Source of the DNA: Candidatus Levyibacteriota bacterium
GTDB taxonomy: Bacteria; Patescibacteriota; Microgenomatia; Levybacterales; UBA12049
Length of the DNA stretch: 64,000 nucleotides
Assembly (NCBI GenBank): GCA_016432345.1
Contig: CP066685.1
Location: 560,236 to 624,235 of the forward strand
Direction: 5' to 3'
Shown here: positions 5,301 through 63,326 of the stretch, in pieces
Numbering within the stretch: position 1 is the stretch's first letter
How the letters are laid out: every line of letters begins with the position of its first letter
Position numbers and translations under genes: made by a program
Notes under the pieces: generated by a model
The model's database searches: none
The model's input: the letters and a program-made list of their open reading frames with translations, nothing else
What the model was told of the DNA's origin: nothing

Positions 5301-5592
5301 CAGTATTGTTTTTTGCCAAAAGAATTAAATGGTTATAATCGTTGTCTACTCCTGCTTCTTTGTCGGTCAGTTTTCTTTTGGCCACATAAATTTCACATCC
5401 TATGATTGGTTTGATCCCTGCATCTAGGCAGGTTTTATAAAATTTTATGGTGCCATACATATTGCCATGATCGGTAATAGCCAAAGTCTTCATGCCCAGC
5501 TTTTTGGCATGCTCTACCATGGGTTTTATTTTCGAAAGCCCATCTAAAAGTGAGTACTCACTGTGGTTATGAAGATGCGCAAAGTCCGTCAT
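2374..5592 (-). CDS. dnaE: DNA polymerase III alpha subunit
   Basis: 1072 aa with the N-terminal PHP motif HLHNHSEYSLLDG, the core motifs GPGRGSAAGSVVSYALGITDVDP and GFNKAHAACYA, and an OB-fold tail. Confidence 0.95.
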   Translation of the reverse strand: MTDFAHLHNHSEYSLLDGLSKIKPMVEHAKKLGMKTLAITDHGNMYGTIKFYKTCLDAGIKPIIGCEIYVAKRKLTDKEAGVDNDYNHLILLAKNNTGYKNLMKIVSISNLDGFYYKPRTDIELLTKYNEGLICLSACVNGYISDPLLHNEETVAIDRMKKLQEIYGEGNFYLELQKHLNIPPQEPLNEKLIEISRKYGVPIVATNDNHYTGKDDAEAQEILLCIQTQTTIENKERKLSMIGSPDFYIKSQEEMINLFTLTPDAIANTVKIADMCNVEIPLGKWIMPKFTPPNNIPTSDYLKSLVNQGLKNRYQDVTAEIIDRIEYELSVILKKGYETYFLIVADFVNWAKKNGISVGPGRGSAAGSVVSYALGITDVDPFFFKLPFERFLNPFRPSAPDIDLDFADIRRDEVIAYVTEKYGEDKVAQIITFGTMEARGAVRDAGRALGMPYSGPDRISKMIPPGWQGHAMTIESALQQSPDLKRAYETETDTKRLLDVAKKLEGVARHASVHAAGVVIADKPLMEYVPLQRETNGDKIVTQYDMYTVGEDGVGLLKMDFLGLRNLTIIEEAMRFIKQNQEMEIDLSVVPVDDKKTYTLLASGETTGIFQLESAGMRRYIKELKPTTIFDLMAMVALYRPGPMQNIPDFIARKHNPKLISYPDPRLKDILSQSYGILTYQDDVLLTTMAIAGYTWLDADKFRKAMGKKIPSEMKKQKEIFLKGVVANGLSQKKAEEIYELIAPFAGYGFNKAHAACYATIAFRTGYLKAHFPVEFMTAVLTAESRGTTGPTKNEKIAQAVAECKRLNIEVLPPDINTSENDFTIEDKKKIRFGLSAIKNVGEAAIETILSARSKGLFTNINDFCERVDLAKVNKKTMESLIKAGAFDIFGKRAMLLLTFPDIIEMISKKKKKESGQASLFGDSEPELIQKTSKVIVDDFSFEEKLGFEKELLGFYLTAHPQMERLLQIQSIITHQLDLLSEEKDGATVKIGGIIEAIRRIFTKKTGAEMAFLAVGNEKGIAIDCVVFPKVFEQYKSYLIKDSVIVIEGHLDAKNEKIAIIAEKIVVTNHFAS

Positions 5593-6365
5593 ATTCTTGG
5601 TCGTTCGGGAATTATTACTTCATTGAAAGAAAAGTTTCTCCGATTTTTTTGTGCTATGTATCCTCTGTTTTTTCCTCCTCTTTTTGCAAAATCAAGGGCG
5701 ATATCAGCACGCTTGAATAAACTTTCTGTAGTATCTCCTGGAATCCACTGCGCAACTCCAAAACTGCATGTGATACGCCTCATAAGTTCATCATCTGGAA
5801 CAGTACTGATAGGAGTTCTATTATTTAGTAGATCTTCGCTTATTCCTTGGAGCGAGTATGAGTATCTTATTAAAATTTGTTTTATTCTTGCTGGAGTTAA
5901 TGATCCTTCTATCATTTGAGCAAATTCTTCTCCTCCTATGCGCGCGATTTCATCTGTTTCTCGAGCATTTAGTGTTTTCATGCATCGTAAGATAGCGTCT
6001 CCGCCCGGGTGGCCATATTGGGTATTTGCCATTTTAAAATTATCGTAATCCATAATGATCAGAAATAATGGTTTTTTTGTTCTATCACTTTCTCGTTCTT
6101 TTACTCTTCTTTCTAGCTCGTCATCAAACCACCTTCTTGATTTAAGACCTGTTAGAGGATCAATCATAGAAAGTTCTTGCGCCTTATGTAGTTCATCTCT
6201 AAGGCGTTGTCTAACAAGAGCAGCTGCTACTTTATCTCTTGCTCGTTGATGGAGATAAGCAATATCAGCATTAGGTTGTCTCTTTTCTAGTTCGTCTCTT
6301 TTTTCTAAGATGGCGGCAGTAATTTGTGGATTTTTGCTTAGTTTTAATTCTGTACGTTCAGCCAT
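5589..6365 (-). CDS. GGDEF-domain diguanylate cyclase, stand-alone
   Basis: 258 aa. A coiled-coil N-terminus is followed by DPLTGLKSRR, an active-site GGEEF, and RETD five residues upstream of it (RxxD I-site spacing). It overlaps the gatB stop by 8 nt and the dnaE start by 4 nt. Confidence 0.85.
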   Translation of the reverse strand: MAERTELKLSKNPQITAAILEKRDELEKRQPNADIAYLHQRARDKVAAALVRQRLRDELHKAQELSMIDPLTGLKSRRWFDDELERRVKERESDRTKKPLFLIIMDYDNFKMANTQYGHPGGDAILRCMKTLNARETDEIARIGGEEFAQMIEGSLTPARIKQILIRYSYSLQGISEDLLNNRTPISTVPDDELMRRITCSFGVAQWIPGDTTESLFKRADIALDFAKRGGKNRGYIAQKNRRNFSFNEVIIPERPRI

Positions 6366-43920: not shown

Positions 43921-43992
43921 GGGTCGGTAGCTCAGCGGTAGAGCAGGAGCCTTTTAAGCTCTTGGTCACAGGTTCGATCCCTGTCCGACTCA
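43921..43992 (+). tRNA. tRNA-Lys (TTT), no encoded CCA
   Basis: Hand fold: GGGTCGG TA GCTC AGCGGTA GAGC A GGAGC CTTTTAA GCTCT TGGTC ACAGG TTCGATC CCTGT CCGACTC A. Confidence 0.9.
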
Positions 43993-44002
43993 CAGTAGCG
44001 GG

Positions 44003-44043: not shown

Positions 44044-45546
44044 CTAAACTAGTGTTTCCAGAAATTCCCCAACGACTGCTAAAACTATCGTCATATCTAT
44101 GTTTTTATCTTCCTGTTTATTCTTATTTTCATTTAGTACTGCTATCTCTTGTACAACTTCTTTTAAGTTATCCTCTGCAAGCTTAATTGCTTCATCAGAC
44201 GAGAATTTCATCATTTGTTTGCCTATTAGTTTTTTTTGACTTTCCAATTCAGCAATCTTTTCATCAATTGTCTGGACATCACGTTGGCCTATGGTTAGAT
44301 TATCCTGCCATTTGCTTAAAACCCGTTGCTTGAGTTTCTCAACGCCTTCTTGCGTTACTTTAACTCTGCTAACAAAATTTTTGATGGTTTGCTCAAAGGT
44401 TTCTGCTGGAATTCTAAAATAATGATTTCTTTTATTACAGTGATAGGCGGGATAACGTGTACCATTTCTTCCTCTTGAAGCACTGCCATATAAAGGGTAT
44501 CTACAGGTTGGACACAAAACATATCTTTTATAAGGATAATCAGGATTTTTGACACATTTTTTAAGCCTCCATTCTTCTGGTTTGTTTTTATAGATAGTTA
44601 TTCCGCCATTTTCTTCAGTTAATACAACTTTACCTCTGTTTGCCTTATTAAACAGCTCAATTGATATTAAGCCATCAAATTTTGTTTTAACAGGCTGATC
44701 ATTAGTCCACTTTTCATCGTTTATTCCTGCATAAATCGGTTTACGGATATATTCTACAAAGCGTTTTACCGCAAGTTTTATACCTCCTCGTTCTCCTATA
44801 ACTACAGTTTTATCTTTTGGATCTCTTAGTAAATTTACTCTGGATTTATACCCCATTTTATTGACCTCTTCTATAATTTGTTCATCAGATATAGTTTTTT
44901 TAGCCCTTAACTCAAACATTTTAATAATAAGCGGGGCTTCTTTCGGATGAGGTTTAAGAATAACTCTTTTTCCATTAGGAGTATCTATTTTTACGTTCAT
45001 ATATCCATATGGAGAGGGTCTAACTCGATAACCCATTCTGACGTAACGAATTTCTGCCCCGATCATTCTGCTTAAAATATCTCTAATTTCATCTTTTGCT
45101 CTTTCTGCCTCTAAAATCTCTGACTTTTTAGTTGGAGAATAAACACTCCACGGAAATTCAATACCTAAATGCCCTAAGGTATTAACTTCTGTATTACCTA
45201 TAATCCCATAAATATCAATTAGCCTTACCCCATAATGGGTGAGCTGCATTTTCATATGATCATAAAAGTAAGAACCGCCCCTGGTAAACCTATCAATCGA
45301 TTTAATTATAAAAAGTTGGATATCATTTTTAGGGTTTTTACAGTAATCAATCGCTTCCTGTACAGGCTGTTCCTCTTTAGAAGCTGATTCCATAAAAATG
45401 AAGAATTTTTTTACGTTTATATTGTGGGCTTTGGCGAATTGTTCTATCTGTTCTTTCTGGGCTTGGGGAGAATCGCCCTGTAATCCCTGCTTTGTAGAGG
45501 AAACTCTGATTGCTGCTACTGCATTTTCAATTTTATACGGATTCAT
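44044..45546 (-). CDS. Large serine recombinase
   Basis: 500 aa with the resolvase-type catalytic N-domain (AAIRVSSTKQG, SIDRFTRG), a recombinase domain, the Cys ribbon CPTCRYPL...YHC and a C-terminal coiled coil. Confidence 0.9.
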   Translation of the reverse strand: MNPYKIENAVAAIRVSSTKQGLQGDSPQAQKEQIEQFAKAHNINVKKFFIFMESASKEEQPVQEAIDYCKNPKNDIQLFIIKSIDRFTRGGSYFYDHMKMQLTHYGVRLIDIYGIIGNTEVNTLGHLGIEFPWSVYSPTKKSEILEAERAKDEIRDILSRMIGAEIRYVRMGYRVRPSPYGYMNVKIDTPNGKRVILKPHPKEAPLIIKMFELRAKKTISDEQIIEEVNKMGYKSRVNLLRDPKDKTVVIGERGGIKLAVKRFVEYIRKPIYAGINDEKWTNDQPVKTKFDGLISIELFNKANRGKVVLTEENGGITIYKNKPEEWRLKKCVKNPDYPYKRYVLCPTCRYPLYGSASRGRNGTRYPAYHCNKRNHYFRIPAETFEQTIKNFVSRVKVTQEGVEKLKQRVLSKWQDNLTIGQRDVQTIDEKIAELESQKKLIGKQMMKFSSDEAIKLAEDNLKEVVQEIAVLNENKNKQEDKNIDMTIVLAVVGEFLETLV

Positions 45547-51547: not shown

Positions 51548-54238
51548 ATGGCGCAAACTAATTTTTCTGAAGCTTTTCCTTCATACTTAAAACCTTTATC
51601 TCAACTTCACCTATCTGTTGTTGCTATCATTGGAATCTCAATAGGAATTGCTATCTCCTTTGTTGTTGGGTGGCTTTACCTGATATATTTAAAACTTCGA
51701 AATGCTCATAATCAAAAATACACTCTTTTAGAAATCAAACCAACCAATAAAACGTTAAAATCTCCGCTTTCTACTACACAGTTGTATACAGTACTCCATT
51801 CTCTGGTAGAAGGAGAATCAGGATTTTTATATACCACTCACAAAAGCATTAGTTTAGAAATAGCTTCTACGAAAGAGGATGGGATCAGATTTATTGTCAG
51901 AGTTCCTCAAAAAGAAGCAGGGATAGTTACCAAAAATGTTTATTCATATCTACCTGGAGTTGAGATTAACCAAATTGATGATTATTTCTCACTTAAGCTT
52001 TTTGATATTGATTCTTTTGACCATGTAGGAGTGCAGGAGATGAGACTGACAAACTCCTATCTTCTGCCTCTTGATAACCAGGATTCGCTAGGACAAGTTG
52101 ATCCTATTGCATATATCACAGGACAAATGACACAACTGGTAGAAAATGAATTAGTAGTAGCTCAATTTATCGCCACACCTATTCACAAATCAACTCATGG
52201 CAGTGCTACAGACATAATCAGTCAAGCACAAAAAAGATTAGAGGATAATTTAGATATTTCAGATCTTATTAATAAAACGAAATATAGCTCTATTACGCGT
52301 TTTTTTAATTATTTCATAAACTCCATTATTGTTGATCATGGTGGAGCTGCTGCTGGGTACGTATTAAACCAATGTCTTTCTCTATTTTTAAATATCGAGA
52401 ACAAATCAGATTCTCACTCTAAAAAACCAAAACATAAACAGATTAGTGAACTTGGGGCTCATAAACAAAAGCAGTTTCAAGCTGTTTCCCAAAAAATTAC
52501 CCAACCGTTATTTGATACCACTGTTCGGTTTGTTATCTATACTCCTCACAAAGAAACTATTAAGGATAGATTAAGAGGCATGGTTTCAGGTTTTGAAACC
52601 TCCCAGTCTGACTATCAAAAACTGAAAAAAGGGATGTACCTTAGATCATTCCTAGAAATTAGACGGTTAAATAAGTTTTATTTAATGTTACTCAAAGACC
52701 GTTTACCCTTAAGTTTTAACAGTGTTATTCTATCTGCTTCAGAACTTTCTTCTTTATATCATCTGCCCTATACAATCACCACCAAAACAGAAGATATTGC
52801 CAAAAATTTCTACAACGAGCTGCCAGCTCCGCTTTCTTTAAAGCAAAACGCAAACTTAGATATTGTATTTGCCAAAAACACCTATGGAGGAGTAGTTACC
52901 CCTATTGGAGTAACAAAGCTTGAACGGACTGGACATTTTTTTGTGATTGGTCAAACGAGAAGTGGAAAAACCAACATGATCAAACAAATGATTATTCAAG
53001 ATATTCAAAAAGGGAGAGGGGTGGTACTGGTTGATCCTCATGGAGATTTAGCCAAGGAACTAATTCCTTTTATTCCAGAAGAACGAATCAATGATTTTAT
53101 GTATTTTAATCCACGGGATATTAAACACCCGATGGGGATTAACTTATTGCAGCTTTCCAATATTGACGATGAGGATGAGAAGGAACTGGAAAAAGATATT
53201 GTTTCAGAAAGCGCGATTTCTATTTTACGAAAAATCTTTACCGATAAATCTTCAACCAATGCCTTTAAAATTGAATCAATTTTAAGAAACACCATTCACA
53301 CTGCTTTTTTAACCAAAGATCCGACACTTTTTACTATTTTTGATTTATTAAATAATCCAGAAATCAGATCCCAGGCTTTACAAAAAATAACTGACCCAAG
53401 ACTGATGGATTTTTGGCGGGAAGAATTTGGCAACTCTGGGGATTGGCAACGGGTAAAAATGGTAACTCCAGTTAATGCTCGTATTGGCAGATTTTTATTC
53501 TCTCCTATTATGAAAAGGGTTTTAGAGCAGAAAAAATCTACCATTAATTTTGATGATTTGTTAAACAACGAAAAAATCCTCATCTGTAATTTATCGAAAG
53601 GTGATATTTCTGAAGATAATTGTGAAGTCTTGGGAACGTTAATTATTACTAAAGTGAGACAAGCTGCGGAGAAAAGATCTTTAATGGATCCAAAAGATAG
53701 AAAGCCATTGTATTTATATGTTGATGAGTTTCAAAACTTTGCTACTCCTTCATTTGTAAAGATGCTTTCAGAACTTGGGAAATTTGGTATCAATATTATT
53801 ATTGTTGAACAATCAACCTCACAACAAGCAGATAGAACTCTCACAAATGTTATTTTGGCTAATACTGGTAATGTGATTACTTTCAAAACTGCTAACCCTA
53901 TTGATGAGGACTTAATGCTTGCCCAATTTTCTCCTGATGCGGAAAAAGGTCATATTCCTAATTTGCCAAGATATCACTTTTATATGAAGAAAGGTGCAGT
54001 TGAGCCGGAAGCACCTTTTTCTGGAATAACCGATCCAGTAGAGATAAAAGAAGATAAAGAAAAAGTAGAGCGGTTTATTGAAGCTTCAAGAAAAAACTAT
54101 GCAATAGAATACAAAAAGCCAGAACCTGCCCCTATTGTTGCGCCTCAAACACCACCTGCAAATAACCATAAATCCTTTAAACCAAAAAATACCGCTCCTA
54201 AAAATATAGTGGTAAAACCGTCTAAATACCTGGGTTGA
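51548..54238 (+). CDS. Type IV coupling protein-like / TraD-VirD4-HerA-type DNA-transfer ATPase
   Basis: 896 aa with an N-terminal TM (IIGISIGIAISFVVGWLYLIYL), the Walker A GQTRSGKT and the Walker B LYLYVDEFQNF. A Pro-rich tail ends the protein. Confidence 0.7.
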   Translation: MAQTNFSEAFPSYLKPLSQLHLSVVAIIGISIGIAISFVVGWLYLIYLKLRNAHNQKYTLLEIKPTNKTLKSPLSTTQLYTVLHSLVEGESGFLYTTHKSISLEIASTKEDGIRFIVRVPQKEAGIVTKNVYSYLPGVEINQIDDYFSLKLFDIDSFDHVGVQEMRLTNSYLLPLDNQDSLGQVDPIAYITGQMTQLVENELVVAQFIATPIHKSTHGSATDIISQAQKRLEDNLDISDLINKTKYSSITRFFNYFINSIIVDHGGAAAGYVLNQCLSLFLNIENKSDSHSKKPKHKQISELGAHKQKQFQAVSQKITQPLFDTTVRFVIYTPHKETIKDRLRGMVSGFETSQSDYQKLKKGMYLRSFLEIRRLNKFYLMLLKDRLPLSFNSVILSASELSSLYHLPYTITTKTEDIAKNFYNELPAPLSLKQNANLDIVFAKNTYGGVVTPIGVTKLERTGHFFVIGQTRSGKTNMIKQMIIQDIQKGRGVVLVDPHGDLAKELIPFIPEERINDFMYFNPRDIKHPMGINLLQLSNIDDEDEKELEKDIVSESAISILRKIFTDKSSTNAFKIESILRNTIHTAFLTKDPTLFTIFDLLNNPEIRSQALQKITDPRLMDFWREEFGNSGDWQRVKMVTPVNARIGRFLFSPIMKRVLEQKKSTINFDDLLNNEKILICNLSKGDISEDNCEVLGTLIITKVRQAAEKRSLMDPKDRKPLYLYVDEFQNFATPSFVKMLSELGKFGINIIIVEQSTSQQADRTLTNVILANTGNVITFKTANPIDEDLMLAQFSPDAEKGHIPNLPRYHFYMKKGAVEPEAPFSGITDPVEIKEDKEKVERFIEASRKNYAIEYKKPEPAPIVAPQTPPANNHKSFKPKNTAPKNIVVKPSKYLG

Positions 54239-54357: not shown

Positions 54358-55179
54358 ATGGAAAAACTAAAGAAAACTACACAACCTTTATCTAATCATC
54401 AAGAACGATTAAATCCATTCCTAGAACAAATACTGATCTTTATTTACAAATTCCGCTACTTATCCAGACCTCAAATACAAAAACTTATGAACCACAAACA
54501 TCACCACACTATTATGCTCTGGCTTAACTATTTAGTAAGTAACAAATACTTAAGAAAATACATTGACTCAAAATACAAAATAGAATCAGCCTACTTTTCA
54601 CTGGGGACAATGGCGAGAAAATATTTTTTAAAGACTGCTGAAATCCAGGATATCAATTATCCTAAACTGGATCGTGTTTGGAAAGAAAATAGTTATTCAG
54701 AAAGTTTTAAAAAACACTGTATGTTTTTAGCACATATTTATCTTTCTCTTCTTGATTTAGTCAAATCAGTTGATGAAGGAAAAGGTAAACTGCATTATTT
54801 TTCTAATGCTGACTTAGAAGGGGTCGAGCATATGATTTATCCTTTGCCGGATGCATACTTTACTATTGAGGATAAAGATGGTGCTATTGAGCGTTACTTT
54901 CTTGATGTGTTTTATGATTACACCAGATGGGGTGATATGGAAAAAAGAGTCAAACAATATCTTAATTACTGCAATAAACAAACCTGGCAGTTATATATGA
55001 AACATGATTTTCCAAAAGTGATTTTAGTTTGCCCTAAACCAATATCAAAAAATAACTTGGAAGAATATATTCAAAAGATGTATAAAGAAAAAGGTAAAAG
55101 AGTTGCTTTTTATTTAAGCACAAAAGAAGAGATACGATACCAGGGTATGAATAGCAGAACTTTACATGAAGTAAAATAA
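54358..55179 (+). CDS. Replication-relaxation family-like protein
   Basis: 273 aa with a winged-helix-like N-terminus ILIFIYKFRYLSRPQIQKLM...MLWLNYLVSNKYL. It is adjacent to the coupling ATPase, as in Gram-positive elements. From memory of PF13814, not searched. Confidence 0.5.
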   Translation: MEKLKKTTQPLSNHQERLNPFLEQILIFIYKFRYLSRPQIQKLMNHKHHHTIMLWLNYLVSNKYLRKYIDSKYKIESAYFSLGTMARKYFLKTAEIQDINYPKLDRVWKENSYSESFKKHCMFLAHIYLSLLDLVKSVDEGKGKLHYFSNADLEGVEHMIYPLPDAYFTIEDKDGAIERYFLDVFYDYTRWGDMEKRVKQYLNYCNKQTWQLYMKHDFPKVILVCPKPISKNNLEEYIQKMYKEKGKRVAFYLSTKEEIRYQGMNSRTLHEVK

Positions 55180-55216: not shown

Positions 55217-55516
55217 TTACTCATGCATTTTTTTAATAACTGACAAAGGTTGAGGTTCAAAATGCAGATCTCGCTCAACCCTAAGTCCATATGGTCCTTC
55301 TACCCACGAAAGCTCGGACAAGGAAAAATACCCGAGTTCGTTGTAGTCACCCACTACAAACCCGAAAAAAGTATCATTTCCGTCAAATTCAATGGCATAC
55401 CATGTCCATTTAGTCCAGGGACAGAAGAATTTGCAGATAACCATAGGATCTTTTGCGTTTTCCATTGCATAAAGTACTGGTAACTTTTCTGTTATGTATT
55501 TTGGTATAAGCATCAT
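55217..55516 (-). CDS. DUF2958-like protein
   Basis: 99 aa. KFFCPWTKWTWYAIEFDGNDTFFGFVVGDYNELGYFSLSELSWVEGPYGLRVERDLHFEP matches the DUF2958 pattern I remember from conjugative plasmids. Confidence 0.65.
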   Translation of the reverse strand: MMLIPKYITEKLPVLYAMENAKDPMVICKFFCPWTKWTWYAIEFDGNDTFFGFVVGDYNELGYFSLSELSWVEGPYGLRVERDLHFEPQPLSVIKKMHE

Positions 55517-55610
55517 GTATGTATCACCCCCTTCCTTTGCTTCCTAAATAATTATTTTTAGGTAGCAGCCTGCCTGCTACCAATACATGCTGCAAGCTTA
55601 GCGGGGTGAG

Positions 55611-55658
55611 TTTTGCAAGGGCGACGAAGAATGAGGAGTGCACTTTACCCTTGCAAAA
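55611..55658. repeat. Inverted repeat TTTTGCAAGGG / CCCTTGCAAAA (11-bp arms, 26-nt loop)
   Basis: Arms lie at 55611-55621 and 55648-55658. The right arm is part of the 14-mer ACCCTTGCAAAATG, which recurs at 58567-58580. Confidence 0.7.
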
Positions 55659-55730
55659 TGAGGGGTGCAACCCCTAAAAAGAGCTAGGAACACTTAGACA
55701 AATTTTGAGAATTTGAGGAGTACTTTTATT

Positions 55731-56213
55731 TTATCTGTTTAACAGGAAAATACTGAAATTTAAGATCGTGGCAAAACTGACCCATGCAAGATATGGCAAT
55801 AATATCCATGATGCCTTTTTATCAATTTTGTAAAATTTAACCATTACCATAATTATCAAAATCCATAAAACAATTATATTAACTAAAGACAAAGGAATAT
55901 TATTCATGCCAAAGAAAACAATCGACCAACTGGCATTAAATACCAAATGAACAGCAAAAAGTTTTAAGGCTTCCCTTACTTCTTTTTTCTTAGTCCCTTT
56001 AATCCATATCCAATAAAGGGAAATTCCCATCAGGGTATAAAGGGTTGTCCAGACAGGTCCAAAAAGCCAGTTAGGTGGTCTGAAGGAAGGTTGGTTTAGA
56101 AGGTTATACCAGTTTTCAATTGAGGAGACAGTAAATACAGTGCCTATCAATCCTGCGCTTTGGCAGATAGCAATTGAAAAAATGAGTTTTAAAATACTTT
56201 TGGGTAGTTTCAT
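55731..56213 (-). CDS. tspO: TspO/MBR family tryptophan-rich membrane protein
   Basis: 160 aa with five TM segments and PSFRPPNWLFGPVWTTLYTLMGISLYWIW. Confidence 0.85.
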   Translation of the reverse strand: MKLPKSILKLIFSIAICQSAGLIGTVFTVSSIENWYNLLNQPSFRPPNWLFGPVWTTLYTLMGISLYWIWIKGTKKKEVREALKLFAVHLVFNASWSIVFFGMNNIPLSLVNIIVLWILIIMVMVKFYKIDKKASWILLPYLAWVSFATILNFSIFLLNR

Positions 56214-56295
56214 TTCTTATATAATTACAGATTAAAAGGTGTTTGTAAACAAAAACACGCGAGTAATTTTAATTGAAGATAAAAGAAATGTTTCT

Positions 56296-57264
56296 TCATA
56301 TAATCTGCTGGTTCAGACCAGATGCTAAATTTATTTCAGCTTCTAGTACAATTCCAGACAAATGAATATTCGGAGTTTGAGTTTTTTTCATTTTTAAAGA
56401 TTCTTTACTACTTAATGAAAAAGTAACAACACCTTTATTCTCTACCGATACAGCCCATGCTAAAGGGTTATTAATATCCTTTTGCTTATATTCATAATAG
56501 TTAATAGGAATTTCAGATCGTTGCATAGTAACTTCTACCTCTATTGGCAAGCTTAATATCTTAAATCGTTGTCCATTGTTATGAATCCATAAATTCTTTG
56601 TGGTGGAACCTACTATAAATTTTACAGTACCAGATTCCAAGTCTGGTATACCTTTTGAGCGAGCAACTGTTGATATTTCATCAAGAGATTTGGATATTAA
56701 ATTATCAAGATTCAACAAATTAACCTCATTATCAATTTCGAAAACTTTATCATGGTTTGAAAGTTTAAATGCTTTATCCAATGGTGGATGATCAAATTTT
56801 ACCGAACCAATTGATTGAAAAGAAAATTTAGGTGTTAATTCTAAAGCGGAATTGAAGGGAAAGATTATATTCTCTATTTTTATCTTTTTGAGCTCTTCTA
56901 ACGTAAGTAATTTGACAGTAGATCCATATTCCAATTCAACATCTTCAATTATAGATTTAGGGTAACCCACTGCAGATACGCAAATAAGTTTTTGTGCCCC
57001 TACCTTTCTCATTTTCATCACCCAACCATCAAATGTAGTAATTTCAGGCTTTGTACCACGTTTTTGTACTTCAACTATCGTAATAGATTGTTGAGGCGGT
57101 TTACCATACGTAATAACAACATCACATTGTCTTTTTCCCGATCTACCAATAACAGGTAGCCATACATCATGTTCTACCTTTGCATCTGGTGTAAGCGACT
57201 TTTCAAGTATTGCCACTATCTCTTCAATCAATTTCCATTTGGATTTTAAAGTCTTCTGCTTCAT
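56296..57264 (-). CDS. Putative PD-(D/E)xK (restriction-endonuclease-like) N-domain protein
   Basis: 322 aa. The N-terminal ~110 aa follow the restriction-endonuclease-like layout: EEIVAILEKSL...KVEHDV...RQCDVVITY...ITIVEVQKRG...LICVSAVGYPKS. The C-terminal 200 aa are unknown. Confidence 0.4.
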   Translation of the reverse strand: MKQKTLKSKWKLIEEIVAILEKSLTPDAKVEHDVWLPVIGRSGKRQCDVVITYGKPPQQSITIVEVQKRGTKPEITTFDGWVMKMRKVGAQKLICVSAVGYPKSIIEDVELEYGSTVKLLTLEELKKIKIENIIFPFNSALELTPKFSFQSIGSVKFDHPPLDKAFKLSNHDKVFEIDNEVNLLNLDNLISKSLDEISTVARSKGIPDLESGTVKFIVGSTTKNLWIHNNGQRFKILSLPIEVEVTMQRSEIPINYYEYKQKDINNPLAWAVSVENKGVVTFSLSSKESLKMKKTQTPNIHLSGIVLEAEINLASGLNQQII

Positions 57265-57265
57265 C

Positions 57266-57847
57266 TTATTTATTCTGTCCCTTTTTCATTTTTTTAACGA
57301 TATCGTTTGTAGATAGTGCCTTTTCAAGTTTTTTATTTACTTCTTCTAATCTCCGTTCTTCAATACTCCAAGAAGGATGTTTTTTCATATAAGCGAAGTG
57401 TTTAGAGTCGGTAATTGTTTTTCGAAATTGAAGATATAATCCAACCATACCTTCTTTTAAAAATATCTTTGTTTTTCCATACTGTACTTCAATATCATCG
57501 TTCTCGAAGTTAAATCCTCTTGAAAGATATAGGTGGGGGTTTAGTAGATTTTGGGGAGATGATCTATGGCAAATGGCATCTCTTATATCTTTAACACTTA
57601 TCATAGAAGCTAGGGATTTTTCGTCTAAATCTTTACTAAAATATTTATCAACGTAATAACTAAGCTCTCGTAGAGACAAAATTAAATGCTCAACAAATAT
57701 ATGTGCTTCTTTTCTGATTGGATTCTCAGAAATTAGAATAATTAGATCCAAACACTGAGACAGTGCAGAAACGATCATGCCTTCATGGATAGAAGATATA
57801 TTTTTGTTAGTTTTCATTTTTTTCTTATTTCTATTTTCTCCAATCAT
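57266..57847 (-). CDS. Putative HEPN-like protein (Rx4H motif)
   Basis: 193 aa with a helical-looking first 100 aa ending in VKDIRDAICHRSS (R-x4-H). The stop TAA lies 1 nt before the downstream ATG. Confidence 0.4.
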   Translation of the reverse strand: MIGENRNKKKMKTNKNISSIHEGMIVSALSQCLDLIILISENPIRKEAHIFVEHLILSLRELSYYVDKYFSKDLDEKSLASMISVKDIRDAICHRSSPQNLLNPHLYLSRGFNFENDDIEVQYGKTKIFLKEGMVGLYLQFRKTITDSKHFAYMKKHPSWSIEERRLEEVNKKLEKALSTNDIVKKMKKGQNK

Positions 57848-57862
57848 TTGAATATGTTATTA

Positions 57863-58336
57863 TTATCCCCATTTTCTAATTCTTTCCAAGATAGAGTCAT
57901 CCAAAACTGCCGCTTGTCTTTGTAAACTAGCACAATACTCAATATCATCTTTTGATGGGTTTTTATTTTCATAGGGACCAGGTGTTTGTCTGATTGCGCA
58001 TAAAACCCACAAACCTAAGTATCTTCTTATGTCATCTGCTATTGACTTATCTAATCCTTCTACTTGTGAGGCAATATAATGGATATGTCTTTGGCTTCCA
58101 GGCATAGCATTGTAGCCTACAGTTGAACCTTCGGTACAAATAGCAATAACCTCTTTTGCAAACTCTCGCTTCTTCTTTTGAACAGCCTCCCGTTTATTAA
58201 AATATTCGTCAATAAATTTACTCCCAAATTTAGTAATCAATGTCAAAAATACCCCCAATGTACCACCGGCAATAAAGAAGGTAATATTTATAGTTGTAAA
58301 AAAATTATTTACCGTAACAGTTGATATTTCTTGCAT
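57863..58336 (-). CDS. Hypothetical protein with one N-terminal TM helix
   Basis: 157 aa with FFTTINITFFIAGGTLGVFLTLITKF. It lies 15 nt upstream of the HEPN-like ORF. Confidence 0.5.
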   Translation of the reverse strand: MQEISTVTVNNFFTTINITFFIAGGTLGVFLTLITKFGSKFIDEYFNKREAVQKKKREFAKEVIAICTEGSTVGYNAMPGSQRHIHYIASQVEGLDKSIADDIRRYLGLWVLCAIRQTPGPYENKNPSKDDIEYCASLQRQAAVLDDSILERIRKWG

Positions 58337-58499
58337 AATTATGATTTGATTTATAATCTTTCTACAATTTTTATTTGAGCTTTGATCAGACCGTAGAGCC
58401 TATATAAACGGATGGCTCAATTTTAGCAAAGTTCTTGCATTTAAGAAAGTCTAAGTAAGCTATCTTTTAAATTCGATCAAATGAATTAACTCTTCCGCA

Positions 58500-58564
58500 T
58501 TATATATGTTACTTAGAATTAAAATATTGAAAATAGCGACCTTCCGAAGGAAGGTAAATATTAA
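58500..58564 (+). repeat. 66-nt intergenic repeat, copy B, with compensated hairpin
   Basis: Same orientation as copy A. The hairpin is ACCTTCC-GAA-GGAAGGT at 58539-58555. The 14-mer ACCCTTGCAAAATG follows immediately (58567-58580). Confidence 0.85.
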
Positions 58565-58594
58565 ATACCCTTGCAAAATGTGAGGGGGCGCAAC

Positions 58595-59053
58595 CTACTT
58601 TGAATATTTATAAATAAAGAGATTTTTTATTGAATTCTTCTCAAGATTTTTAGAAGTGGTGATAATAATGTCTTCGATTTCGTCACCACCCAGTGACTTC
58701 ATCTCACTACTATCACCTAAAAACTTATCCCATAAGGACTTAAGGAAGTCTTTTCTTTTACCAGGAATACGGATACCAGCTATTGCTACAGATTTTGCAT
58801 TATACAGATCAGCAAGCGTAAAAGCAGATCTCAAGGATTGATGTAATCCTACATAATTTATTCTGGATTCTTCATTGTTATGATCTGCTATAGGCATAAA
58901 AATAACATGCTTGGCTTTTAACTCATATCCCTTAGTCATAACTGCATAACCAACCTCACAATATCCTATTGTTGTCACTTCTTTTACTAAATCTTTACCA
59001 GCTTTTTCAAAGATATTTTTAATTAAACTTTGTTTAGATTCATGTTTAAACAA
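58595..59053 (-). CDS. Macro-domain-like protein; true N-terminus probably upstream (frame open to 59185)
   Basis: The track ORF starts at TTG 59053. The same frame stays open for 44 more codons, back to the TAG at 59188-59186, and encodes ...QIATSGDITDFKGDVIIIPCDSELSYTK..., the GDIT first-strand motif of macro domains. Later segments AKHVIFMP and NAKSVAIAGI also fit. No ATG, GTG or TTG occurs in the extension. Confidence 0.5.
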   Translation of the reverse strand: MFKHESKQSLIKNIFEKAGKDLVKEVTTIGYCEVGYAVMTKGYELKAKHVIFMPIADHNNEESRINYVGLHQSLRSAFTLADLYNAKSVAIAGIRIPGKRKDFLKSLWDKFLGDSSEMKSLGGDEIEDIIITTSKNLEKNSIKNLFIYKYSK

Positions 59054-59229
59054 TCGGTAATCAGGATTGGGAGAAATGGTTTTAGTATAACTAAGTTCAG
59101 AGTCACACGGAATTATAATTACATCACCCTTAAAATCAGTTATATCTCCGCTTGTGGCAATTTGTATATTTATATTTTTACTGTACTATACTTATGTGCA
59201 AATCTAATCCACCTCGGCCGTGGATAGCA

Positions 59230-60063
59230 TTAAGCCTTTTTTGATATACCTTCACCAAATGAAAATCTATTATGACTAATACTACTACCTTCTCCTTGAA
59301 TGAGTCTTCCAGCTATGTTAGCTGGAAAAAAATGAGTTCTTCTCATTTCTCCCGTCTCACATGCAGAAATAATCATAGCGAGAATTATTGACAACTGCCA
59401 ACCAGAATCACTTACCGGAGGATCCCGAAACGCTTTATGATAATATTTTCCATTCGAATCCCAACCGCCGTTATCTTTATGCCTGGTAAGCAAACAGCCA
59501 TCCTTAAAAAACATTATTGCATTGGGACCAAGAACAAAATCTTCCTTAAGTTTCGTGGGGCTTGGTCTCTTAAACCATTTGTTTAAATTTTTATCACTTG
59601 GAGTTGTTCCACTATAACCAAAAATAATTGAAAATGGATTAACTTTAAATTTAGACAGACGTTTTGCTGAAGCTATATTTTCAACCGCATTATCAAAATC
59701 GCCTGCGTTAAGTGTGGTTTTTACCTCTAAAATTGCAATAACAGCCTCGGGAATGACTATGGCAAAATCTCCTTCCTGAAATAAATAAGCTGCTGGCATT
59801 GTCTCATCCACTATCATGATATCTATTTGATTACTAACATCACCCTTGCCTTTATAAATGAAACCCTTTTTAACTGAATATCTTTTTGTCAAAAAATTAC
59901 GTATTATCGTTCTTAAAATTTCCTCATGATAATCGCCGGATGTAACTCGATGTGAGGTTAAGGTTTTTATTCTCTGAAACTTACCCTTTATTTCATCAAC
60001 AAAGCTTTCAAAATATTCAATATCAGGAGCGTTAATGTTTGCCATATGATTGAATTGTACCAA
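59230..60063 (-). CDS. DUF6602-like PD-(D/E)xK nuclease-fold protein
   Basis: 277 aa. GDYHEEILRTIIRNFLTKRYSVKKGFI...SNQIDIMIVDE...AVIAILEVKTTL shows a D...E-x-K arrangement and the layout I remember for DUF6602. Confidence 0.45.
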   Translation of the reverse strand: MVQFNHMANINAPDIEYFESFVDEIKGKFQRIKTLTSHRVTSGDYHEEILRTIIRNFLTKRYSVKKGFIYKGKGDVSNQIDIMIVDETMPAAYLFQEGDFAIVIPEAVIAILEVKTTLNAGDFDNAVENIASAKRLSKFKVNPFSIIFGYSGTTPSDKNLNKWFKRPSPTKLKEDFVLGPNAIMFFKDGCLLTRHKDNGGWDSNGKYYHKAFRDPPVSDSGWQLSIILAMIISACETGEMRRTHFFPANIAGRLIQGEGSSISHNRFSFGEGISKKA

Positions 60064-60092
60064 AATTGAGCCTGAATTGCCGAACTGCTTTT

Positions 60093-60101
60093 TGGTATAA
60101 T
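60093..60101 (+). promoter_or_regulatory. Extended -10 (TGgTATAAT) for the OLD-family gene
   Basis: TG lies at 60093-60094 and TATAAT at 60096-60101, 23 nt upstream of ATG 60125. No good -35 is present. Confidence 0.4.
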
Positions 60102-60124
60102 GCGCTTAACTTTAATTAAAAACT

Positions 60125-61975
60125 ATGAGATTATCAAAAGTAATAATCACTGGGTTTCGATCTATTCAAAAAACTGAGGAAGTAATCCTTGACCCCAAAA
60201 TTAATATCTTAATTGGAGCAAACGATCACGGAAAAACCAATATCTTGTACGCAATTAGGTGTCTAAACGAAGATAGTCCCATAACAGAGGATGATAGGAA
60301 TTGGGATCTACCTAGCACTGATGCAGTCAAGGTACAGTGGCATTTTAAAGTTGATCAGGATTTTCTTGACAAGTATCCACAGAACGAGCAGGAAGTAGGA
60401 AAAGAGGAAGCTGAAAAAGGACTAGATGAAGAAAAAGCTTCAGACCTCCCAACAACTGAACCAGCAACTGAAGAGACTCCTCATGAAATCACATATTTTG
60501 CTACAAATAGCGATTGCGAACTGATTTTTTATCGAGAGGGTGTGGGTGAAACAAGTAAAGTTCGTGTCCTTAACACCCCAATCAAGATATCTATAGAGAA
60601 AGAAACGGAGTTACTAGAATTAAGACCGAGAGTAGAGATTTTTGAGGCACCCAAAACCAATTTAGTCGATAGAGTGAATCTTGCCCAACTAATAACCCCA
60701 GAGTTTGAGTTTATGCAGGGAATTTTCATGCTGGCGGGCTTATGGGAGAATCGGGAAACGGTGTTTTTCGAGAGTGATAAGACATCAAAATTACTCAACG
60801 AAGCCTCTGATAAGCTCACAAAAATCCTAAACGACAAATGGAATCAAGGAAAAAACCTTACATGGAAGCTCATTCATGTTGGTACTAACGGCGACCATAT
60901 CGAGATCAAAATTCAAGACCCATCCGTTAAGGGACAATATACCCGACCATCACTTCGATCATCAGGATTTCAGACATACTTCCTAATTTCGATGATTATC
61001 TTAGCTAGAACTCAGAATAATAAAGGTAAGTTCATCTATCTTTTTGATGAACCAGGAACCTATCTCCATCCACACGCTCAACTCGATCTACAGCGTTCAT
61101 TTGAACTTATCGCCGACGACACTCAACTTATATATACAACGCATTCACTGTTCCTCATTAGTAAGAACTATCCGAATAGAAATAAGGTCATAAGCAAAAC
61201 TGATGAAGGTACAAAAATTGATCAAAAACCATTTCTAAAAAATTGGAAATCAGTAAGAGACTCTCTGGGTATCCTGTTAAGTAATAACTTTCTGATCGCA
61301 GAAAAAACCCTACTTACGGAGGGTCCATCCGATGTAATTTACATTCTTAGTGCTATAAAGCAGATGAAAGCATTACAGAAAGTAGATATAGACTTAAATG
61401 ATTTGAGTATCGTAGACGCTGGCAGTCCAGATAACTACATCGCTATGGCAAAATTGATGCTCTTGGAGGGTAGAGAAATTGTGGCATTGCTTGATGGAGA
61501 CAAATCTGGTGATGACACCGAAAAAAAGCTCAAAAAAGTCTGCGAAAAAGAACTCAAAGATAAAAAGTTTCAGATTTATAAACTACCTAAGGATAAGTCG
61601 ACTGAGGATATCTTTACCAATCAGAATAGCCTAAGAGAGTCAATCAAAGCCACTGCAGAATATCTTATTAAGGAAGAAGTTAGGAAGCTAAAGGAGGGGG
61701 TAACTACGGATCAGGAAATTAAGAAGATTAAAACAACCTCAGGTAAAACATTGGGTAAGCTTATAGATGAAATTACAGCAGCAATGTTTACTGATGAAGA
61801 AAAACTTTCTAAGCTCTCAATATCATTAGACTATGAAGACCGAGTAGCCACATCTCAACCAGAGTTGCCAAAAGAAACTCAAACTTCAGTAGAAACACTT
61901 AGAACATTATTACAATTACGGGGTGAAAAATCAGCTGAAAAAAGTGTTTTTGAGGTAGTATCAAACTCCGAGTAG
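60125..61975 (+). CDS. OLD-family nuclease (ABC-type ATPase fused to Toprim)
   Basis: 616 aa with ITGFRSIQK...GANDHGKTN (Walker A), IYLFDEPGTYLHPHAQ (Walker B) and YTTHS (H-loop). The Toprim domain has LLTEGPSDVIYI and ALLDGDKSGDD. An acidic insertion EQEVGKEEAEKGLDEEKASDLPTTEPATEETPHE follows the P-loop region. Confidence 0.75.
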   Translation: MRLSKVIITGFRSIQKTEEVILDPKINILIGANDHGKTNILYAIRCLNEDSPITEDDRNWDLPSTDAVKVQWHFKVDQDFLDKYPQNEQEVGKEEAEKGLDEEKASDLPTTEPATEETPHEITYFATNSDCELIFYREGVGETSKVRVLNTPIKISIEKETELLELRPRVEIFEAPKTNLVDRVNLAQLITPEFEFMQGIFMLAGLWENRETVFFESDKTSKLLNEASDKLTKILNDKWNQGKNLTWKLIHVGTNGDHIEIKIQDPSVKGQYTRPSLRSSGFQTYFLISMIILARTQNNKGKFIYLFDEPGTYLHPHAQLDLQRSFELIADDTQLIYTTHSLFLISKNYPNRNKVISKTDEGTKIDQKPFLKNWKSVRDSLGILLSNNFLIAEKTLLTEGPSDVIYILSAIKQMKALQKVDIDLNDLSIVDAGSPDNYIAMAKLMLLEGREIVALLDGDKSGDDTEKKLKKVCEKELKDKKFQIYKLPKDKSTEDIFTNQNSLRESIKATAEYLIKEEVRKLKEGVTTDQEIKKIKTTSGKTLGKLIDEITAAMFTDEEKLSKLSISLDYEDRVATSQPELPKETQTSVETLRTLLQLRGEKSAEKSVFEVVSNSE

Positions 61976-62028
61976 ATTATCAATTCATCTGAAATGATTT
62001 TTGCTCTCGATAATTTTAATCTCCTCTG

Positions 62029-62310
62029 GTGTTAGGCCGTAGAGTTTATAAACTAACTGATGTTAATTTTAACAGAATTGTTGAATACCGATCTAAAGAA
62101 GAACAAATTCCAAGCAACAATAGTGATATAAAAATTATTAATGCTATCCACAATCATTTTAAAGACGACCCTTTTGCGTTCGAAAAATGTGCGGTTGAGA
62201 TCGTAAGAATGATGGATATCGATATAGTAGATATTCTTAAAAGAAACGGTTACTCCACTCCAGAACAAGTTATAAGATGGATTAATGCAATGATAAATTT
62301 AAGTACAAAT
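62029..62310 (+). pseudogene. Probable remnant of a restriction-endonuclease-type gene (N-terminal ~90 codons only)
   Basis: The first part of track ORF 62029..62559 reads like protein (…IINAIHNHFKDDPFAFEKCAVEIVRMMD…, resembling the FE-xx-v-xx-l start of Mrr-type catalytic domains). Past about 62310 it runs antisense through the DUF4420-like gene and becomes low-complexity. Confidence 0.3.
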
Positions 62311-62315
62311 ATATC

Positions 62316-63326
62316 CTATTTAGGAAAGGCTGCTTTAAATATTCCGTCTTTTAATTTTTCTGACTTCTTATTGATACTTTGGATATCTGATAGATCCACT
62401 TTAAAGTGCACATCACTAACTCCTTTAGGTAAGTCAGAATCAATACAAGGAATATTCTCAGGTAGAAAGAACATTAAAGACTTCTTTGCTAATTTTAAAT
62501 CAAACTTGTCTTTTGCAACTGACCTCCAATCGTTGCCCAAAGTATTGCCCATAACTTGATCTAAGTAAAGTAATAATTCAGGCTCTTTGTTTATTTTTAA
62601 GCGTACTGATTCCGCAAGTTCAGTTAGTGATGTTCCAGTTCCTACTCTTTCCACAAATACAGACGCGATTAATATGTCAACGACAGATGGTGGTTTTAAT
62701 TGATCTAAGGAAAAATGATGCTCTCTTAATCGAGATGTGGCACTTTTAATTTCTACACGTTGATTTCCAGAACCGAAGTCAAATTTATCACCTGGATTTC
62801 TATGCCACGCTCTTACCAATGAAATGGGATCTGTAGCTAAAGATATTAATAATAATTCAGCCCACAATCCTTGTACTGATTTTCGAGGAGCTTCATTCAT
62901 AACTCTGAATAACTCCACTAAGTCCCCAACAGCTTTAGCCACTTGTCCATGAGAAGGTGAATTTCCAATGACCGCTATCACAGCATTTCCAATACGTAGA
63001 AAGTATTCTTGCAAGAATATATCTTGATCTATACAGGAGATAACAGTGAATTTGCTATTTTCTAAAGTTTCTTTATGAGAAATTCGACAATCAATGTCGT
63101 ATATTACTTCTAAATGTTCCAACTTAATTGGAGCTGGACGATTAATTGCCGGAGATTCTTTTGTAGAAATAAGTAAACTGGGGTAGCCATTTACATCTTT
63201 AGCGAGTCGATGATTTGAATAACCCGGAATAGGTAACGCCGAGAATCGCGGTTGATTTTTAGAATTGATACTACTTGGAATTTTTAGCTGTTTGAATAAA
63301 TTAATTAGATTTAACATGGCTTTCAC
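62316..63326 (-). CDS. DUF4420-like PD-(D/E)xK family protein
   Basis: 336 aa. PGDKFDFGSGNQRVEIKSATSRLREHHFSLDQLKPP...ILIASVFVE matches my memory of the DUF4420 core (D-F ... E-x-K ... H-x-F-S ... QL). Confidence 0.5.
   Translation of the reverse strand: MKAMLNLINLFKQLKIPSSINSKNQPRFSALPIPGYSNHRLAKDVNGYPSLLISTKESPAINRPAPIKLEHLEVIYDIDCRISHKETLENSKFTVISCIDQDIFLQEYFLRIGNAVIAVIGNSPSHGQVAKAVGDLVELFRVMNEAPRKSVQGLWAELLLISLATDPISLVRAWHRNPGDKFDFGSGNQRVEIKSATSRLREHHFSLDQLKPPSVVDILIASVFVERVGTGTSLTELAESVRLKINKEPELLLYLDQVMGNTLGNDWRSVAKDKFDLKLAKKSLMFFLPENIPCIDSDLPKGVSDVHFKVDLSDIQSINKKSEKLKDGIFKAAFPK

Follow-up and report, generated by a model that had tools for sequence, protein, structure and literature searches.

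We describe two divergent genes in a 64-kb stretch of the chromosome of a Candidatus Levyibacteriota bacterium (hereafter referred to as the window, along which all positions are counted), one coding for an OLD-family ATPase-Toprim protein and the other for a DUF6602 protein with a NucC-like PD-(D/E)xK nuclease core. Our analysis indicates that these genes are probably two independent single-gene nuclease cassettes, which came to lie back to back by recombination in a defence cargo region, and not the two parts of a single defence system. The OLD and DUF6602 genes stand side by side only in this genome. The two genes and the DNA segment between them are located as follows:

59230-60045, reverse strand: gene for a DUF6602/NucC-like PD-(D/E)xK endonuclease of 271 amino acids, probably an independent cassette (Pfam, NucC sequence and fold matches)
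60042-60124, forward strand: segment ahead of the OLD gene, which moves together with it and holds the extended -10 box TGGTATAAT (blastn homology)
60125-61975, forward strand: gene for an OLD-family ATPase-Toprim protein of 616 amino acids, of the solitary Class 1 type (Pfam, PADLOC, hhalign and fold match)

The corresponding open reading frames (ORFs) were found at 59230-60063 (-) and 60125-61975 (+). We place the start of the DUF6602 gene at the ATG at 60045 and not at the TTG at 60063, since protein P0121, which is encoded in a Candidatus Levybacteria genome and is identical to the window DUF6602 protein over 271 amino acids, and all 28 aligned homologues begin with MANINAP. With this start, the gap between the divergent genes measures 79 nt, and not the 61 nt given in the initial annotation of this DNA. 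The same annotation had raised the possibility that the two genes form a new OLD-DUF6602 partnership and had proposed a survey of the genes next to the closest OLD homologues, in which unrelated neighbours would speak against this idea. We collected 84 loci coding for OLD relatives from genomes, metagenomes and exact-protein look-ups, which represent 60 distinct contexts. In 46 of these, the sequence extends for 1 kb or more upstream of the OLD gene, and in 44 it does so downstream. When the loci were searched by tblastn with 120 DUF6602 proteins as queries, none of the 60 contexts contained an adjacent DUF6602 gene; the lone match was a DUF6602-like fragment with 31% identity, which is located 1.9 kb downstream of the OLD gene with three ORFs in between (L048). 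When the ORFs flanking the OLD genes, three per side, were clustered, no recurrent partner emerged, and the only neighbours seen repeatedly were methyltransferases (6 loci, at varied positions), serine recombinases (4 loci) and NERD nucleases (2 contexts). The closest homologues of the OLD protein therefore have unrelated neighbours without a DUF6602 association, and the proposed partnership was not borne out.

The surroundings of the individual OLD relatives illustrate this diversity. The gene for the relative with 92% identity is preceded by an unannotated 142-amino-acid ORF and a PDDEXK_1 gene and followed by an unannotated 269-amino-acid ORF, with a type I restriction-modification system and type IV secretion genes at the same locus. 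The 86% relative is found with an N6/N4 methyltransferase and ResIII, the 76% relative with unannotated ORFs, and the 72% relative with an M23 peptidase and a NERD gene adjoining type IV secretion genes. At further OLD loci, GmrSD, MvaI/BcnI, transposase, transporter and STAND genes were seen, and none of the proteins encoded next to the two genes in the window has a homologue in any of the OLD loci. A similar picture emerged for the DUF6602 protein, whose relatives with 86, 77, 66 and 66% identity are encoded in four differing settings: an island with an SLFN-like helicase, SIR2, PDDEXK_1 and AAA_15; a housekeeping region, next to a 450-amino-acid ORF without family matches; the vicinity of a CBASS (cyclic oligonucleotide-based antiphage signalling system) locus with Cap15; and the vicinity of a type I restriction-modification system. 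No OLD gene was found within 5 kb of any of these four relatives.

Further evidence comes from the extent of nucleotide homology. By blastn, the locus coding for the 92% OLD relative (L022/L029) matches the window with 90.7% identity at positions 60042-62004 only, a segment consisting of the OLD ORF with flanks of 83 nt on the upstream and 29 nt on the downstream side. The locus coding for the 86% DUF6602 relative (L085) matches at positions 59243-60059 only. Around the start codon of the DUF6602 gene, the two homology blocks share 18 nt (60042-60059). As the breakpoints coincide with the gene boundaries, the two genes appear to have separate histories, and as the homology is limited to the OLD gene and its flanks, this gene seems to move alone and with its own promoter. 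A candidate for this promoter is the box TGGTATAAT at 60093-60101, which lies 23 nt ahead of the OLD ATG and had already been pointed out in the initial annotation. It is kept in the 92% relative, while the 76% and 86% relatives carry TGGTTCAAT and TGGTAGAAT, respectively, and in all three the box is located 23-24 nt from the ATG, even where the flanking sequence has diverged. Overall, the four closest relatives retain a TGGTnnAAT box. Within the window, TGNTATAAT occurs 5 times as against 4.8 times expected, which is no enrichment, so that from the window alone the box could have arisen by chance, and a sigma-70 scan did not report it, since no -35 element passed. We nevertheless retain TGGTATAAT as a likely promoter because its position is conserved in the homologues, and the OLD gene likely possesses a private promoter of the extended -10 type.

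The OLD protein itself contains the following regions, all encoded on the forward strand:

60215-60238: Walker A motif (P-loop) GANDHGKT, residues 31-38, nearly invariant in 25 homologues
60383-60481: acidic, Pro/Thr-rich disordered linker, residues 87-119 (low model confidence, length survey, gap in P2 Old)
61034-61051: Walker B motif IYLFDE, residues 304-309, with L306, F307, D308 and E309 invariant
61142-61144: H-loop histidine H340, invariant
61298-61615: Toprim nuclease core, residues 392-497, with predicted metal ligands E399, D403, D457, D459, S492 and E494
61616-61972: C-terminal helical region and conserved tail LRGEKS..(G/S)VFE(E/V)V (model and alignment)

Pfam matches to AAA_15 (E 5e-28) and AAA_21 (3e-15) cover the ATPase, and the OLD-like_TOPRIM model is matched with 24.6 bits against a cut-off of 23.2 (E 4e-5). 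Among the PADLOC models, Old scores 95 bits over the length of the protein, the best GajA model 68 and a retron-type ATPase-Toprim model 44. The top AriA match in PADLOC covers residues 1-345, that is, the ATPase half only, and mirrors the Pfam AAA_15 match. In an alignment with 25 members, little or no variation is seen in the Walker A motif GANDHGK, an SSGF signature-like motif, the Walker B motif LFDEP and H340. The same holds for the Toprim residues: E399, D403, D457, S492 and E494 do not vary, and D459 is conserved in at least 90% of the 25 homologues. The TEGPSD motif carries E399 and D403, the DGD motif carries D457 and D459, and these are followed by S492-x-E494. In Ts OLD, mutagenesis identified E377/D381, D431/D433 and S478/E480 as the ligands of two metal ions (PMC7049728), and the six Toprim residues of the window protein have the same spacing pattern. 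A comparison of the family profile with P2 Old using hhalign gave a probability of 97.9% and an E value of 3.2e-13 over 460 columns, with residues 1-526 of the query aligned to residues 1-540 of Old, and takes in both the ATPase and the Toprim domain. The AlphaFold model of the protein has a mean predicted local distance difference test (pLDDT) score of 78. Its best match among solved structures is Ts OLD (6p74, E 2.6e-15), followed by GajA (1.4e-14) and then the retron Eco8 effector. The identity to characterised members is 15-25%. Judged by these motifs and matches, the window protein is a genuine OLD-family enzyme and looks catalytically competent. The assignment of both genes in the initial annotation, as an OLD-family ATPase-Toprim protein with complete Walker A/B, H-loop and Toprim motifs and a DUF6602 PD-(D/E)xK protein, was confirmed by the Pfam and PADLOC matches, and the motifs of the OLD protein are all kept in the 25 homologues.

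Hundreds of OLD relatives are present in the database, and the best 120 of them are 50-100% identical to the window protein. Their hosts include members of the Candidate Phyla Radiation (CPR; Amesbacteria, Woesebacteria, Yanofskybacteria and Saccharibacteria) as well as Elusimicrobia, Acidobacteria, Spirochaetota, Planctomycetes and Proteobacteria. The model places helices at residues 500-596, C-terminal of the Toprim core, and this helical region has no sequence match to any solved structure. We also observed that the C-terminal tail of the clade, LRGEKS..GVFEEV, is conserved after these approximately 100 helical residues, and that its middle region (EFMQGIF, NDKWNQG) is unusually conserved, with 50-60% identity over very distant phyla. 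This pattern in the alignments suggests that the clade has spread horizontally in recent times under strong constraint.

A further feature of the protein is an acidic, Pro/Thr-rich stretch at approximately residues 85-120, of which residues 87-119 are modelled as disordered with a pLDDT below 50. This stretch was originally reported as an insertion not associated with P2 Old or GajA, and it does align to a gap in P2 Old. In its own family it is nothing unusual, but a hypervariable linker common to a whole clade of solitary OLD genes. When the segment between the anchor residues F74 and E132 was compared in 119 homologues, its length ranged from 29 to 144 residues with a median of 55 (57 in the window protein), and the mean fractions of D+E, K+R and P+T+S+A were 0.20, 0.08 and 0.37, respectively. 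The column identity was 0.27 in the linker as compared to 0.70 in the rest of the protein. The acidic segment is a hypervariable, low-complexity tether in the N-lobe of the ATPase, which is found throughout the clade and is not a catalytic element.

OLD enzymes are assigned to classes according to genomic context (PMC10568477), and Class 1 comprises the solitary OLD genes (PMC10568477, PMC7049728). In structure, Class 1 is distinguished from Class 2 by shorter proteins without the Toprim 'Insert 3' helix and the C-terminal helical domain. The window OLD protein resembles the Class 1 enzymes P2 Old (of phage P2), Ts OLD (of Thermus scotoductus, PDB 6P74) and Vc OLD (of Vibrio cholerae) in its E-x3-D, D-x-D, S-x-E ligand pattern and in being solitary, with no conserved partner over the 60 contexts, and Class 1 members also provide its best full-length PADLOC model and best fold match. 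Its location on a mobile element beside other, independent defence genes is a further trait in common with Vc OLD and P2 Old; Vc OLD, a nickase of Class 1 with a role in defence, is encoded beside an independent DarTG system (PMC12392090). It differs from the Class 1 enzymes in its low identity to them (approximately 18-25%), in the disordered acidic linker of approximately 35 residues and in the presence of its clade in CPR and other uncultivated phyla. In contrast to Ts OLD, it also possesses the helical region of approximately 100 residues and the conserved tail after the Toprim domain. With the Class 2 protein GajA of Gabija, whose partner is the UvrD-like helicase GajB, it shares the ATPase-Toprim architecture, a near-equal fold score (1.4e-14) and helices C-terminal to the Toprim domain. 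However, no UvrD/PcrA/Rep-like helicase is encoded beside the window OLD gene or among the scanned neighbours of its homologues, and the score of the GajA hidden Markov model is below that of the Old model. Downstream of the OLD gene, the window contains the remnant of a gene and a DUF4420 gene in convergent orientation. A plasmid-borne relative that was considered as a Class 2 reference, on Bacillus thuringiensis pMC319, proved on inspection to be another solitary OLD gene. Class 3 proteins of the retron Eco8 type have homologous ATPase and Toprim modules, but the ten ORFs scanned between 54.3 and 64 kb are free of an RVT domain (a non-coding RNA was not searched for). A link to retrons was dropped, as a reverse transcriptase is encoded at one of the 60 contexts only, approximately 1 kb downstream of the OLD gene (L055). 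The modules of the Class 4 system PARIS are likewise homologous, but they are split between AriA and AriB, whereas both are fused in a single 616-amino-acid ORF here. On the basis of its solitary context, the window OLD gene is assigned to Class 1 and not to Classes 2, 3 or 4.

The DUF6602 protein matches the Pfam DUF6602 family (6e-26) and the PADLOC models PD_DExK (5e-29) and NucC (1e-23 and 1e-20). Its QIDIMIVD and ILEVKT motifs, noted at the outset, are real, and residues D75, D80, E81, E107 and K109 (numbering of the 271-amino-acid protein) are invariant in 28 homologues. The codons for the three putative catalytic residues are located as follows, on the reverse strand:

59821-59823: D75, invariant in homologues
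59725-59727: E107, invariant in homologues
59719-59721: K109, invariant in homologues

The first 135 residues match NucC sequences, with a phmmer E value of 1e-13 to Serratia NucC. The structural model (pLDDT 85, predicted template modelling score 0.87) was aligned by Foldseek to NucC structures over approximately 240 columns with an E value of 1e-11 and template modelling scores of 0.57-0.67. By these matches, the protein is predicted to be a PD-(D/E)xK endonuclease with the NucC fold over its full length. NucC is an endonuclease of CBASS and type III CRISPR systems that is activated by cA3, for which CD-NTase or Cas10 is the source. The window protein resembles NucC in its PD-(D/E)xK core by sequence and in its whole fold by model, and differs from it in being approximately 30 residues longer and in its context, since a Pfam scan of the approximately 40 larger ORFs in the window revealed no SMODS/CD-NTase or Cas10 domain. 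Another parallel is Damona, a lone DUF6602 protein that has been reported to act against phages as a single-gene system and that shares the matches to PD_DExK and CBASS endonucleases (10.1101/2024.07.02.601686). The DUF6602 gene in the window likewise stands alone on its mobile element, a likeness in domain and context. At the locus of the 77% homologue P0124 (L086/L087/L088, 3645-5828), the 450-amino-acid ORF without family matches ends 4 bp upstream of the DUF6602 gene on the same strand, with genes for ATP synthase and other housekeeping functions around it; this ORF has no homologue in the window and could code for a lineage-specific partner of the DUF6602 protein.

How might two independent enzymes of this kind act? 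The following steps are drawn from the literature on characterised OLD enzymes (PMC7049728, PMC10568477, PMC12392090, PMC12445682). As for P2 Old, Ts OLD and Vc OLD, the window OLD protein could form a dimer or a higher oligomer via the domain inserted in its ATPase. The ATPase might sense or gate a cue linked to infection, with the binding or hydrolysis of ATP controlling the Toprim nuclease. The Toprim site would then cut nucleic acid by two-metal catalysis and in this way block the replication of a phage or a rival element, possibly to the detriment of the host cell. Candidate substrates are DNA, which would be nicked or degraded in the 5'-3' direction, and tRNA, as recently reported for P2 OLD. 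The DUF6602 enzyme could cut DNA on its own, as reported for Damona.

One alternative is that the two proteins together constitute a novel defence system, with both genes transcribed divergently under the control of a common region, the OLD ATPase acting as the sensor of infection and the PD-(D/E)xK protein as a second effector. The genes are indeed adjacent and divergent, the 79-nt gap contains promoter-like boxes for both strands, both proteins are nucleases of defence-associated families, and several OLD homologues have some nuclease encoded nearby (PDDEXK_1, NERD). However, these nearby nucleases belong to unrelated families and are found at varied positions and on varied strands, as expected in defence islands. 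Together with the lack of an adjacent DUF6602 gene in all 60 OLD contexts, the lack of an OLD gene near the closest DUF6602 homologues and the restriction of the homology shared with the 92% OLD relative to its own ORF and short flanks, this makes such a system highly improbable. Another explanation is that the OLD-like enzyme serves the element or the cell and not immunity, for instance in the maintenance of a plasmid or an integrative and conjugative element (ICE), in competition between elements, in DNA processing or in the cell cycle, as is the case for the archaeal OLD-family ATPase Cran1. The latter provides a precedent for non-defence roles in the OLD family (PMC12796447), the closest homologues adjoin type IV secretion genes, serine recombinases are present in 4 contexts, the window gene itself is located on an integrated element, and no phage-encoded relatives were found. 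On the other hand, the neighbours are often restriction-modification, GmrSD, NERD or STAND genes, the family is scattered over many phyla at 50-60% identity, a distribution typical of defence genes that move horizontally, and the nuclease site is fully conserved. We therefore consider a non-immune role unlikely. One might also speculate that the clade represents a distinct kind of solitary OLD protein, in which the linker and the tail make up a novel module for sensing or for use as a decoy, perhaps one targeted by phage inhibitors under arms-race selection, or that the OLD protein cooperates with the NucC-like nuclease at this particular locus; we regard this as very unlikely.

Two independent cassettes thus remain the likely explanation, against which several points have to be set. 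The identity of the OLD protein is approximately 18% to Ts OLD and 25% to P2 Old in the alignment, and the approximately 100 helical residues after the Toprim core are lacking in Ts OLD and present in Class 2 proteins, which makes for an imperfect structural match to Class 1. The survey on the DUF6602 side is small and comprises 5 distinct contexts and one viral contig. The NucC-like enzyme might need a cyclic-nucleotide signal produced by a gene outside the 64-kb window. We infer the role in defence from family and context, and a locus-specific interaction between the OLD and DUF6602 proteins is conceivable even though the pairing is not conserved. If the two cassettes are independent, the apparent OLD partnership has come about by chance, through the packing of genes in a defence island, and should not be pursued as a new system. 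What the locus does document is an uncharacterised, strongly conserved and horizontally spread clade of solitary OLD proteins, including members in the CPR, where immune systems have been little studied, and a family of stand-alone nucleases with a predicted NucC fold in the same organisms. Both families could be useful for comparison in studies of Class 1 OLD enzymes and Damona-like nucleases.

The region containing the OLD and DUF6602 genes represents the cargo portion of a mobile element inserted at a tRNA-Lys gene in a Levybacteria (CPR) chromosome. The first 36 kb of the window contain housekeeping genes, and what appears to be an integrated mobilisable or conjugative element starts at approximately 43.9 kb and runs past the end of the window:

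43921-43993: tRNA-Lys gene
44044-45546, reverse strand: gene for a serine recombinase of 500 amino acids, directly after the tRNA-Lys gene
between the serine recombinase gene and the following gene: unannotated ORFs
51548-54238: gene for a type IV coupling-protein-like ATPase
54358-55179: relaxase-like gene with a weak Replic_Relax match
55217-55516: DUF2958 gene, followed by TspO
58595-59053, reverse strand: Macro-domain ORF of 152 amino acids with a TTG start

After TspO, a run of small genes comprises three without family matches, the Macro-domain gene, the DUF6602 and OLD genes, a restriction-enzyme remnant and the DUF4420 gene. No backbone genes are common to the window and the type IV secretion elements carrying the 92% and 72% OLD homologues, and only the DUF2958 gene of L085 matches. 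A single ICE family with swapped cargo was considered and dropped, as there is no common backbone, and the OLD cassette therefore seems to move between different elements. Scans of viral contigs yielded no OLD relative and one weak DUF6602 relative, a phage genome collection contained only two partial matches, and plasmid matches were limited to the core at approximately 30% identity. The carrier elements are therefore not known phages or plasmids.

Several additional observations were made in and around this element. The Macro-domain ORF and three ORFs coding for proteins of 157, 193 and 322 amino acids are tightly packed on the reverse strand at 56296-59053. The latter three have no Pfam, NCBIfam or PADLOC match, and the set may represent an uncharacterised cargo operon. 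DarTG was considered for the Macro-domain neighbour and discarded, as PADLOC gave no DarT or DarG match. The DUF6602 and DUF2958 genes bracket differing cargo in the window (55217-60045) and in L085 (1861-7426), namely the Macro-domain gene, the three ORFs of the putative operon and TspO in the former and a 74-amino-acid ORF, SIR2, PDDEXK_1, AAA_15 and a 212-amino-acid ORF in the latter. The DUF6602-DUF2958 interval looks like a hotspot for the exchange of cargo. On the other side of the OLD gene, the ORF at 62029-62559 (+) matches only positions 224-269 of a 393-position model for a type II methyl-directed restriction enzyme and overlaps the 3' end of the convergent DUF4420 gene; this ORF is likely what is left of a degraded restriction gene. 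Far from the element, a gene for a GGDEF diguanylate cyclase is located at 5589-6365 (-) between dnaE and gatB, both of which it overlaps by a few bases at its ends, and its presence seemed unexpected in a small CPR genome.

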